Shown: positions 17,087-54,540 of the stretch, piece by piece
Position numbering within the stretch: position 1 is the first letter of the stretch
How the letters are laid out: each line of letters starts with the position of its first letter
Assembly: GCA_037200745.1 (NCBI GenBank)
Contig: JBBCHK010000014.1
Span: 23,735 to 87,734, forward strand
DNA from: Alphaproteobacteria bacterium
GTDB taxonomy: Bacteria; Pseudomonadota; Alphaproteobacteria; Rickettsiales; UBA3002
DNA: 64,000 bases
Reading direction: 5' to 3'
The notes under the pieces: model-generated
What the model saw: only the letters and a program-made list of their open reading frames with translations
What the model was told of the DNA's origin: nothing
The model's database searches: none
Program-made: the position numbers and the translations under genes

Positions 17087-18842
<1,756 letters not shown>

Positions 18843-21777: not shown

Positions 21778-21857
21778 TGTCATTCCGCGAAAGCGGGAAT
21801 CCAGTTCTTTTTAAGTGGCGCTTCGCGCGCCTGGATTCCGCTTTCGCGGGAATGACA
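21778..21857. repeat. GTC-tagged element, subfamily A (gene-less)
   Basis: Arms as in cassette 1 (each lacking one C); spacer is the exact reverse complement of the spacer at 36841. Confidence 0.95.
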
Positions 21858-25936: not shown

Positions 25937-26340
25937 GATTCCCCCTTCGAAGGCCTTGTTTTTATACGAGCGTTTTCCAGCTGTCACCGCAACGATGCAG
26001 GGCGCGCTTCCGCACTGCCCGCGTAGGCCGTCAGGCCGACCGCAGGAGGAGGGTGGCAGCGGGGGCGAGTTCGCGTCCGCGAACTAATTCTCGCCCCCCT
26101 TCCGGGATATGCTATTGTTAACGAAATTTTAGGGCTTCTGTGGTCTACTGAAGTTATCCTCATGATGCTGTTGCTTACAGTTTCGCTCCTTACGCTGCCG
26201 GCGCTGGCCTCCTGCCGCGCCGGGTCCCGGCAAGGGTCCGCGCCCGCGCCAGGCGCGCTAGGGCGATTTCCTACCTAAAGGCTTGAGATCCATTCCGGCC
26301 CTCCTGTGGCAGTCTGCCCGCGTTTTTGGAGGCGAGTCCT

Positions 26341-26947
26341 ATCGCCATTCATCTGCACCAGGGCGACCTGCCCGCGGCGTGACGTTCCACGCGGACATCG
26401 CGGTCGACACCGAGGCGATGGGCCTCAACAACCAGCGCGACCGGCTGTGCCTGATCCAGCTCTCCGACGGGCGGGGGACGAGCACCTCGTCCAGTTCGCC
26501 CCCGGGCAGTACGACGCGCCGCACCTCAAGGAGCTGCTGACCGACCACGGCCGCACCAAGCTGTTCCATTTCGCGCGCTTCGACGTCGCCATCATCCGCC
26601 ATTACCTCGGCGTGGTGACGTCGCCGGTCTATTGCACCAAGATCGCCTCGAAGCTCTCGCGCACCTTCACTGACCGCACGGCTTCAAGGACCTCTGCCGC
26701 GCCTGTTGCAGGTCGAAGTCAGCAAGCAGCAACAGACCTCCGACTGGGGGCAGGAGAAGCTGAGCCCCGAGCAGCTCGAATACGCCGCCTCCGACGTGCG
26801 CTACCTGCACCGGCTGCGCGACAAGCTCGACGCCATGCTGAAACGCGAGGACCGCGCGAGCTGGCGCAGGCCTGTTTCCAGTTCCTCCCCGCCCGCTGCG
26901 CCCTGGATTTGGCCGGCTGGCCCGAAACGGATATCTTCGCGCACTGA
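26341..26947 (+). CDS. rnd: Ribonuclease D-type 3'-5' exonuclease (frameshifted; start codon reads ATC, probably an error)
   Basis: AIHLHQGDLP, AVDTEAMGL...RDRLCLIQL, KLFHFARFD, CTKIASK, SKQQQTSDWG, YAASDV. Confidence 0.92.
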
Positions 26948-26959
26948 ATAGGAAAGGAA

Positions 26960-27300
26960 TGTCATCCCAGCGAAGGCTGGGATCCAGCCCGAATGAAAAA
27001 CTACTACGTTTACATCATGGCAAGCGAACGGAATGGAACTCTCTATATCGCGTAACGAACGATTTAATGCGGCCGCTTGGGAACATAAGAACAATGCCAT
27101 AGAAGGTTTCACTGAAAAATATGCCGTACATCACCTGGTATGGTATGAAGCATACGAGGATGTTACTATCGCCATCCAGCGGGAAAAGAACCTGAAGGCG
27201 TGGAAACGCCTTGGAAACTTCGCCTCATCGAAGAGTCGAATCCGGAGTGGAAGGATTTATATGAAGAGTGGGCTGGATGCCAGCCTGCCGTGGCATGACA
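26960..27300. mobile_element. GIY-YIG cassette 2 bounded by 31-bp imperfect inverted palindromic arms
   Basis: TGTCATCCCAGCGAAGGCTGGGATCCAGCCC (26960-26990) / GGGCTGGATGCCAGCCTGCCGTGGCATGACA (27270-27300). Confidence 0.82.
26993..27298 (+). CDS. Small standalone GIY-YIG nuclease, copy 2 (indels)
   Basis: Repaired: MKNYYVYIMASERNGTLYIGVTNDL...EHK...FTEKY...LVWYE...AIQREK..K.W.R.WKL.LIEESNPEWKDLY. Confidence 0.9.
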
Positions 27301-27308
27301 GGAAAACG

Positions 27309-28291
27309 ATGAGCCATAAACAACCTCAGTTGCAGCTTCCGCCGATGAAAAACGCCTGCTTGCCGCCGCGCGCGAGGTGCTGGCGCGGGAGAGTGAGGGC
27401 ATCCGCGCCGTGTCCGAGGCGCTCGACGGGAAGTTCGTCGAGCTGGTCGAGGCCATTGCGGCGCTCAAGGGGCGCGTCATTATTTCGGGCATGGGCAAGT
27501 CGGGCCATATCGGCCGCAAGATCGCGGCGACGATGGCATCGACCGGCACGCCGGCCTTCTTCGTCCACCGTCCGAGGCCAGCCACGGCGACCTCGGCATG
27601 ATCACGGGCGACGATCTCGTGCTCTGCCTCTCCAACTCCGGCGAGACGCATGAGCTGCGCGACGTCATCGCCTATACGCGCCGTTTCGACATTCCGCTCG
27701 CGGCGCTGGTGCGGCGGGAGACGTCGGTGCTGGTCGCGCGCCGACATCGCCATCGTGCTGCCCGCCATTCCCGAAGCCTCGCCCACCGGCGCGCCGACGA
27801 CCTCGACGACGATGATGCTCGCCTTCGGTGACGCGCTCGCCATCGCGCTGCTGGAGAACAAGGGCTTCACGCGCGAGGATTTCGGCATCTAACCACCCGG
27901 GCCGGAAGCTGGGCGGCAATTCCTGCGCGTCGAATCGCTGATGCATGTGGGCGACGAATTGCCGCTGGTCGCGCCCGAGGAAAAAATGGAGCACGTGCTG
28001 CTGACCATGACGGCCAAGCGCTTCGGCTGCGCCGGCGTGGTCGACGGCGACGGCAAGCTGCTCGGCATCATCACCGACGGCGACTTGCGGCGGCACATGA
28101 AGGAAGCATCATCCACCTTTCCGCCTTCGAGGTGATGACGAAGAACCCCGTCACCATCACCCGGCGACGCTGGCGCCCGAGCGGCTGGGCGTGATGAACG
28201 CGAGATCGATCACCTCGCTCTTCGTCGTCGAGAACGCACGCCGCAGGGCATCCTGCACATCCACGACCTGCTGCGCGCAGGGGTGCTCTGA
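27309..28291 (+). CDS. kdsD: Arabinose-5-phosphate isomerase KpsF/GutQ (frameshifted)
   Basis: GMGKSGHIGRKIAATMASTGTPA, HGDLGMI, SNSGET, APTTSTT, CBS pair ending LHIHDLLRAGV. Confidence 0.95.
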
Positions 28292-28300
28292 CCGTGAGCG

Positions 28301-36840: not shown

Positions 36841-36921
36841 TGTCATTCCCGCGCAAGCGGGAATCCAGGCGCGCGAAGCGCCACTTAAAAAGAACTGGAT
36901 CCCCGCTTTCGCGGGGATGAC
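36841..36921. repeat. GTC-tagged element, subfamily A (gene-less)
   Basis: TGTCATTCCCGCGCAAGCGGGAATCCAG-spacer-CTGGATCCCCGCTTTCGCGGGGATGAC. Confidence 0.95.
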
Positions 36922-51478: not shown

Positions 51479-51556
51479 GTCATTCCTGCGAAGGCAGGAA
51501 TCTCTTTACCCTCTTGCGCAGGCATCGAGAGAGATTCCCGCCTTCGCGGGAATGAC
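51479..51556. repeat. GTC-tagged element, subfamily A variant (ATCTC/GAGAT shoulders)
   Basis: GTCATTCCTGCGAAGGCAGGAATCTC...GAGATTCCCGCCTTCGCGGGAATGAC. Confidence 0.93.
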
Positions 51557-54455: not shown

Positions 54456-54540
54456 GTCATTCCCGTGAAAGCGGGAATCCAGGCGCGCGAAGCGCCACTT
54501 AAGAAAACAAGGGCTGGATTCCCGCTTTCGCGGGAATGAC
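54456..54540. repeat. GTC-tagged element, subfamily A (gene-less)
   Basis: Right arm identical to cassette 1; spacer GCGCGCGAAGCGCCACTTAA shared with 21778 and 36841. Confidence 0.95.

Follow-up and report, generated by a model that had tools for sequence, protein, structure and literature searches.

Organisation of the locus

The element described here, cassette 2, is a 341-nt insert at positions 26960–27300 of the window, by which we mean the whole 64,000-nt stretch of DNA that was analysed. The insert separates two genes, each frameshifted in the assembly. Their 3'-5' exonuclease, SIS and CBS domains are consistent with rnd and kdsD, and these names are used below. The features are listed here; ssn and SRM refer to a published nuclease family and its hairpin motif, introduced in a later section.

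26306–26947, plus strand: 3' part of rnd, with a 3'-5' exonuclease domain; frameshifted in the assembly; stop codon TGA.
26960–26990, plus strand: left arm of cassette 2, reading T-GTC, stem ATCCCAGC, loop GAAG, stem GCTGGGAT, then CCAGCCC; SRM motif match at 26960–26987.
26993–27298, plus strand: ssn-type GIY-YIG open reading frame (ORF) of cassette 2, about 101 codons, interrupted in the assembly by single-base deletions near 27050, 27075 and 27208.
27270–27300, minus strand: right arm of cassette 2, with the minus-strand sequence T-GTC-ATGCCACG-GCAG-GCTGGCAT-CCAG; SRM motif match at 27273–27300.
27309–28300, plus strand: kdsD, with SIS and CBS domains; frameshifted in the assembly.

The two arms, of 28–31 nt, are inverted and share one form: GTC, an 8-bp stem, a 4-nt loop, the returning stem and then C. 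The rnd stop codon lies 12 nt upstream of the left arm and the kdsD ATG is 8 nt past the right arm. As a terminal inverted repeat, the arms measure 31 nt each and are 84% complementary. The left arm has a perfect 8-bp stem and, as single-stranded DNA (ssDNA), folds at −8.5 kcal/mol (z −2.7). The right arm, as assembled, has a stem of only 6 bp and the canonical hairpin is not its minimum-energy fold. Its z score is −1.2, and 26 of 200 shuffles fold as well. GC content is 0.45–0.50 in cassette 2, against about 0.63–0.70 in the flanks.

The ORF begins with an ATG at 26993, 2 nt past the 31-nt left arm. Read through its frameshifts, it stops at a TGA (27296–27298) within the right arm. A previous sequence-only reading of the window had described this arrangement: a cassette between rnd and kdsD, an ATG 2 nt after the left arm and an ORF ending in the right arm. 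We see the same layout, except that the right stem is weak. The ORF enters the right arm by 22 nt and its TGA is taken from the conserved ATGAC end of the arm, both in cassette 1, a related element of the window (17414–17439), and in cassette 2 (27273–27298). Relatives L018, L019, L020, L021 and L023 use the same stop. Hence, with the stop codon supplied by the arm, the hairpin encodes the last residues of the protein.

Divergent GIY-YIG genes in one genome

The host, an alphaproteobacterium that has not been cultured, has a genome of about 2 Mb. The assembly used is 1.85 Mb long and 69% complete. A tblastn search of this genome identified three GIY-YIG genes: cassette 1, cassette 2 and a copy on contig C5, which we call the third cassette. 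All three are located between arms. Cassette 1 is arranged as follows.

17087–17441, plus strand: cassette 1, with arms at 17087–17114 (plus strand) and 17414–17441 (minus strand), both TGTCATTCCCGCGAAAGCGGGAATCCAG, and a GIY-YIG ORF at 17122–17439 as assembled.

Pairwise identity among the three paralogues is only 47–57%. With X placed at the breaks in cassette 2, the proteins of cassettes 1 and 2 match at 49 of 89 aligned residues, three of these being X. The earlier hand alignment had counted about 52 of 90. Its proposal that cassette 2 is an independent, divergent copy, not a recent duplicate, is upheld by our recount. The closest intact relative, L018, comes from a congener and is identical to cassette 2 at 70 of 102 residues.

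GIY-YIG was the sole Pfam family above cut-off, spanning residues 3–80 in proteins of 99–102 aa. The E-values were 2.3e-12 for cassette 1, 3.1e-15 for the contig C5 copy and 6.6e-14 for L018. Because of its frameshifts, the cassette 2 fragment alone scored 18 bits, below the Pfam cut-off of 22.6. Lengths of 94–99 aa dominate among 164 ssn copies collected for this study. A search of NCBIfam with the cassette 1 protein returned no family, and a search of PDB chains returned no solved structure at E ≤ 0.01. In a separate genome (G033, contig C8:10388–10663, locus L159), an ssn-like match falls inside an open frame of 1609 aa. The frame might represent a fusion or be no more than a lengthy open stretch of GC-rich DNA.

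Frameshifts in cassette 2

As assembled, the cassette 2 ORF contains three −1 frameshifts and passes through frames 0, 2, 1 and 0. A word search of public sequencing runs found one study with a small share of the words of this stretch. Contigs from its low-depth run X1 match rnd at 26300–26600 and 26677–26921, and insert a single base at four places relative to the window. Hence, with four bases restored within about 550 nt of rnd, the assembly drops roughly one base per 140 nt there. When contigs of runs X1, X2 and X5 were compared with 26300–28300, parts of rnd and kdsD were matched and none of the contigs ran across cassette 2. Single-base deletions are frequent in the assembly. In addition to rnd and kdsD, several hairpin arms are one base short, for example in the repeat at 21779–21856.

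Cassette 2 could be a decaying pseudogene that makes no nuclease, its frameshifts and imperfect right arm being real. There are three frameshifts in about 300 nt. The 6-bp stem of the right arm is indistinguishable from shuffles, and the matched public contigs leave cassette 2 uncovered. A genome-wide count of the cassette 2 arm variant, suggested by the earlier reading, found the ..CCAGC-type stem in only 13 of 151 arms. Conversely, the neighbouring rnd and kdsD are frameshifted too, and independent contigs restore the four bases missing from rnd. All three breaks in the cassette 2 ORF are single missing bases, the same kind as in rnd. The reading frame is otherwise kept from end to end, with the 70 of 102 residues identical to L018 noted above. 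We consider decay unlikely, at perhaps a quarter of the weight of opinion. It is more likely that the three frameshifts are assembly errors and that the gene is intact.

Relationship to the Ssn/SRM systems

The pairing of hairpin, gene and hairpin was first described in 2025, for the Ssn nucleases (Chenal et al., Nat Commun 2025, PMC11893778). According to the main text of that paper, SsnA of Neisseria meningitidis is a single-domain GIY-YIG protein of 94 aa, which belongs to cd10448 (GIY-YIG_unchar_3), a family of CDD. It binds the hairpin of the Neisseria NTS repeat, CGTCATTCCCGCGMAVGCGGGAATCYRG, only as ssDNA and cuts a few nucleotides upstream. The three bases upstream of the palindrome are critical for cleavage and the C just 3' is critical for binding. 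The characterised relatives do not cleave double-stranded DNA (dsDNA). The same text defines a degenerate Ssn-related motif (SRM), HGTCWYN(0-2)YYVSBRHN(0-5)WNVSBRGN(0-2)RNCYNB, which lies on both sides of 42% of SsnA homologues, the criterion for a homologue being E < 1e-10 to the N. meningitidis protein. The authors compared the NTS-ssnA-NTS layout with an insertion sequence and with RAYT/REP. When four homologues were cross-tested, each on the hairpins of the others, their specificities were partly distinct. Co-evolution of nuclease and hairpin, with pairs of differing specificity, is already published (PMC11893778).

The SRM motif flanks cassettes 1 and 2 on both sides, in inverted orientation. 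There are 159 SRM matches in the genome and 8 in a reversed control. The strict NTS occurs 20 times, and 79 times if the first base is disregarded. Each cassette 1 arm has 27 of the 28 bases of the Neisseria NTS consensus and departs from it only at the first. Across 93 arms, drawn from many genomes, G2 and T3 never vary, while C4 and the C following the palindrome (C25) are at least 90% conserved. These conserved bases are the positions critical in the published assays, as described in the main text (PMC11893778). The closest link to the Neisseria enzyme was an indirect one, through a copy from Uruburuella suis, a Neisseriaceae genome; 53 of 83 residues are identical.

Cassette 2 therefore resembles the Ssn/SRM systems in several respects: a single-domain GIY-YIG protein of about 95–100 aa, arms that match the SRM, the hairpin-gene-hairpin layout, GTC 5' and C 3' of the palindrome, hundreds of dispersed hairpin copies, and hairpin variants that accompany enzyme variants. 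On this comparison of sequences, we consider it very probable that cassette 2 is a member, namely a single-domain SsnA-like GIY-YIG gene between two inverted hairpin copies, with the activity and mobility set out below. It is a real element of an already known kind, published in 2025.

The expected activity follows the four characterised homologues. The cassette 2 protein would bind its hairpin only in ssDNA. It would read the stem-loop together with the GTC on its 5' side and the C on its 3' side. Cleavage would occur a few nucleotides 5' of GTC and would leave the other strand uncut. With the arms in inverted orientation, either strand of the cassette would have a single cleavable hairpin, placed at the 5' boundary of that strand. 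Such arms are present about 150 times in the genome, mostly as gene-less inverted doublets, an arrangement that mirrors REP/REPIN sequences and their RAYT transposase.

Gene-less repeats in the genome

With one mismatch allowed, the short word GTCATNCCNGC matches 34 times in the window, where 25.8 matches are expected, and 12 of 100 shuffles reach 34; by itself the word shows no enrichment. A scan for the full GTC-hairpin found 223 in the genome and 7 in the reversed-sequence control. At this frequency, the hairpins cannot be put down to chance. Together with the framing of all three GIY-YIG genes, this agrees with the earlier view that chance flanking is unlikely. An AT.CC.GC stem is present in 151 of the 223. 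These 151 arms include 55 gene-less inverted doublets of 77–97 nt and 2 gene-bearing pairs. The left arm of cassette 2 was scored as solo because the right arm failed the pairing criterion. The window contains five gene-less doublets, for which no strand is assigned.

21779–21856: CCAG type; two inverted arms around a small central hairpin.
36842–36921: CCAG type, 80 nt.
51479–51556: CTCT type, 78 nt; tails as in the third cassette (contig C5).
52514–52591: CTCC/CTCT type, 78 nt; right end AATAAC.
54456–54540: CCAG type, 85 nt.

A small third hairpin marks the doublet centre; CCAG doublets have GCGCGAAGCGC there and CTCT doublets a GCGCAAGCG-like sequence. An A/T-rich stretch is found at one side only of CCAG doublets, so that these have an orientation. 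We rejected the idea that doublets are deletion derivatives of cassettes; their central 25–45 nt are the small hairpin itself, unlike the subterminal sequence of the cassettes. Single 26-nt perfect palindromes, GTCATTCCCGC-loop-GCGGGAATGAC, were also seen at C5:109003–109028, C6:231501–231526, C10:48116–48141, C12:39280–39305 and C9:147338. Here, one hairpin is an arm on both strands and GAC takes the place of the tail. These palindromes may be a minimal form of the repeat. In run X5, one low-depth metagenome contig links the left arm of cassette 2 to the right arm (window 26986 to 27274), with 39 other letters between. On this slight evidence, the contig may derive from an organism of that sample and contain a doublet whose arms resemble those of cassette 2.

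The likeness to REP, BIME and REPIN sequences with their RAYT enzymes is close. Both comprise short extragenic hairpins arranged as inverted doublets and an enzyme gene, in one or few copies, framed by repeats. In both, the enzyme acts on ssDNA hairpins, as far as the Ssn homologues are a guide for cassette 2. The framed enzymes differ, being a GIY-YIG hydrolase here and an HUH tyrosine transposase in RAYT systems. If the arms were ordinary REP/REPIN sequences spread by a RAYT (Y1/HUH) transposase, the GIY-YIG genes would be passengers. The doublet architecture, two inverted hairpins 77–97 nt apart, is that of REPINs. However, a search of the 69%-complete genome for Y1_Tnp (PF01797) returned nothing, whereas its control gave matches in 6 of 14 known genomes. 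Passengers would also not be expected to show the precise framing of 3 of 3 GIY-YIG genes, a gene-arm pairing that recurs across phyla, or the biochemical tie between Ssn proteins and these hairpins given in the main text of the 2025 paper (PMC11893778). We regard the passenger explanation as very improbable and favour repeats that belong to the Ssn-type nucleases.

Families of repeats defined by their tails

The earlier reading held that GTC and CCAG were both invariant. GTC is invariant or nearly so. Conversely, CCAG is replaced by CTCT in the third cassette, and likewise in 27 of the 151 genome arms and 12 doublets. Among the 55 doublets, 35 have CCAG at both ends, 12 have CTCT at both ends and none combines CCAG with CTCT. 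CTCC and CTTA tails occur in congeners.

Across the relatives there are 36 CTCT arms. This genome has 20 and the genome with the closest homologue of the contig C5 protein has 4. Expansion of the CTCT family is confined to genomes that have an ssn gene framed by CTCT arms. Similarly, ATTCCTGC/CTCC arms total 31, with 24 in five genomes that have the matching nuclease clade. Because the genomes are akin, these counts are not independent. They suggest that different paralogues may serve repeat families set apart by the bases that follow the hairpin.

Variation of arms and nucleases

We aligned 93 arms and found 98.4% of stem cells paired, a value that is partly built in because the arms were chosen as hairpins. 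Changes on both sides were seen for 6 of the 8 pairs. The alignment contains 94 double-changed stem cells, a number reached in 0 of 500 shuffles, and slid controls collapse. Variation is concentrated at stem positions 3 and 6, where cassettes 1 and 2 differ. The earlier observation that the two cassettes have stems differing by compensatory pairs is thus confirmed.

Comparison of nucleases with arms used 164 gene copies, from 80 diverse genomes and 41 relatives. The hairpin scan detected arms on both sides of 77 copies, on one side of 43 and on neither side of 44. For the 80 diverse loci, the published SRM regular expression placed arms on both sides of 18, on one side of 28 and beside none of the other 34. 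A looser search for inverted repeats detected arms scoring 20 or more in 25 further loci.

Left and right arms of a cassette tend to agree. The stems are the same in 30 of 56 cassettes (shuffle mean 7.8, maximum 14) and differ in 26. The four-base tails are the same in 43 of 56 (shuffle mean 14.2). We built a FastTree phylogeny of 156 proteins and 96 columns, which is poorly resolved; five duplicate loci were excluded, as were rows of fewer than 85 or more than 125 aa. Stem type changes 51 times on this tree, whereas shuffled labels need 69 changes on average and at least 65. Two-base tail type changes 16 times, compared with a shuffled mean of 25.8 and minimum of 22.

The clade of cassette 2 includes L018, L019, L021, L023, L024 and L150. 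Every arm detected in the clade has ATGCCAGC or ATTCCAGC as its stem, and the nearest relatives all have ..CCAGC stems. Arms of the cassette 2 type number 110, in 17 of 41 genomes. Of these arms, 70 are in 11 genomes where no nuclease of the cassette 2 clade was found.

Two linked proposals of the sequence-only reading can now be assessed: that nuclease clade and arm type are congruent, and that enzyme and hairpin variants may co-evolve. Each stands in part. Types cluster on the tree, with fewer changes than in shuffles. A strict one-to-one match between stem variant and nuclease clade was rejected; 26 of 56 cassettes have two different stems and 70 of 110 arms are in genomes without a gene of the clade. 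Arm type follows the nuclease clade, though only loosely. Furthermore, gene and arms are inherited together. Clustering on the tree is therefore expected of any element, and by itself is no proof of functional co-evolution. Because of the mixed cassettes and the arms without a clade gene, the stem variants look like largely neutral compensatory drift. The hairpin would then be read by its shape, GTC and the following C, with no strict lock and key.

Probable insertion at the rnd-kdsD junction

We read the rnd-kdsD junction in 13 genomes of the same genus. In 7 of the 13, the junction is tight, with 2–9 nt from the rnd stop to the kdsD ATG. Others, each in one genome, contain a 48-nt spacer, an arm fragment (gctggaatgac) or a hairpin doublet (G002). 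G011 has an ssn cassette other than cassette 2 at its junction; the stems are ATTCCCGC and the tails CTTA. Genes of other kinds were seen at this site. In G009, a HigB/HigA pair occupies the junction (L015 717–1339); one gene encodes a HigB-like toxin (Pfam E 4.9e-19) and the other resembles an HTH_3 antitoxin gene (E 7.5e-8). One congener (L011 858–1355) has a 165-aa ORF without a Pfam match.

The seven members of the cassette 2 clade lie in at least 6 different flanking contexts. Hence, from the variation at the junction and the differing contexts of the clade, the unit is an insertion, at a junction repeatedly colonised by small selfish elements. We infer that the unit of gene plus arms is, or recently was, mobile and inserted into the otherwise tight rnd-kdsD junction. 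This reading of mobility draws on presence and absence among species only 70–78% identical in DNA, and some sites may reflect deletion instead of insertion.

AGGAA is found at both ends of cassette 2. No repeat of this kind surrounds cassette 1, the G002 doublet or the G011 cassette. We therefore dropped target-site duplication as a defining feature, since AGGAA accompanies only cassette 2 among the four elements read.

A free-standing GIY-YIG homing endonuclease gene, cutting empty alleles in dsDNA, might also have produced patchy occupancy. Cassette 2 encodes a GIY-YIG fold, is low in GC relative to its host and has a patchy distribution among congeners. I-TevI-type enzymes likewise combine a GIY-YIG catalytic domain with selfish-element behaviour. 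In these enzymes, the catalytic domain is joined to a DNA-binding domain, and the context is an intron, intein or phage. Conversely, the cassette 2 protein, of about 100 residues, is a catalytic domain only, without a DNA-binding domain. The gene is at a chromosomal intergenic site, between rnd and kdsD. The hairpin inverted repeats on either side of it exist in many copies in the genome, and relatives of the clade are at different loci with no single homing site. The main text of the 2025 paper adds that characterised relatives do not cleave dsDNA (PMC11893778). We give homing of this kind almost no credence and retain an Ssn-type element inserted at the junction.

The element also has features in common with transposons. 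As in IS200/IS605 elements (TnpA, single-strand 'peel and paste'), there are subterminal hairpins, here predicted to be recognised in ssDNA, and no consistent target-site duplication. In IS200/IS605, both end hairpins are on one strand and the enzyme makes covalent intermediates. By contrast, the cassette 2 arms are inverted, with one site per strand. We know of no strand-transfer or joining chemistry for a GIY-YIG hydrolase. The terminal inverted repeats of cassette 2, of 31 nt and 84% complementary, are like those of a classical IS or MITE. Pfam searches found no transposase domain and the elements read had no consistent target-site duplication.

Taken together, the tail families and the variable occupancy of the rnd-kdsD junction allow a tentative proposal. 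One small genome may keep several orthogonal nuclease-repeat pairs, in which the tail, more than the stem, marks the paralogue. Units of hairpin, ssn and hairpin might then be autonomous mobile elements, with paralogue-specific ends driving separate gene-less families. The autonomous part of this proposal comes from combining the two lines of evidence. We think the proposal possible, and rather less probable than its opposite.

Implications

For the window, annotation is settled. Both the GIY-YIG cassettes and the numerous hairpin repeats belong to the Ssn/SRM elements, and noise in the assembly is the probable source of the frameshifts. The new content is modest. Compared with the main text of the published account (PMC11893778), it consists of three divergent paralogues, 47–57% identical, in one genome; two repeat families (CCAG and CTCT) that are unmixed within doublets, each matching a resident cassette; and comparative evidence of insertion at one junction, rnd-kdsD. 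The host differs too, being an uncultured member of the Alphaproteobacteria whose genome is about 2 Mb. The words 'paralog', 'MITE' and 'doublet' do not occur in that main text, and its supplementary tables may treat some of these points (PMC11893778). A search of the literature on GIY-YIG proteins with miniature inverted-repeat or REPIN elements, or on YhbQ/UPF0213/COG2827, found nothing relevant.

The genome and 23 congeners make a compact natural test set, with up to 10 paralogues per genome and repeat families that differ by few bases. To our knowledge, no sequence-specific nucleases other than the Ssn enzymes act on ssDNA alone. The rnd-kdsD junction, empty in some congeners and filled by different elements in others, is part of the set. 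Such a set could guide the choice of enzyme and hairpin pairs for studies of orthogonal specificity and mobility. Within one genus, genomes of about 2 Mb contain from 0 to 10 ssn homologues. In relatives G016, G020, G017 and G004, the arm stems of ssn copies are as unlike as ACCCCGTC, ATCCCGGC, ATCCTGTG and ATGCTGAA.
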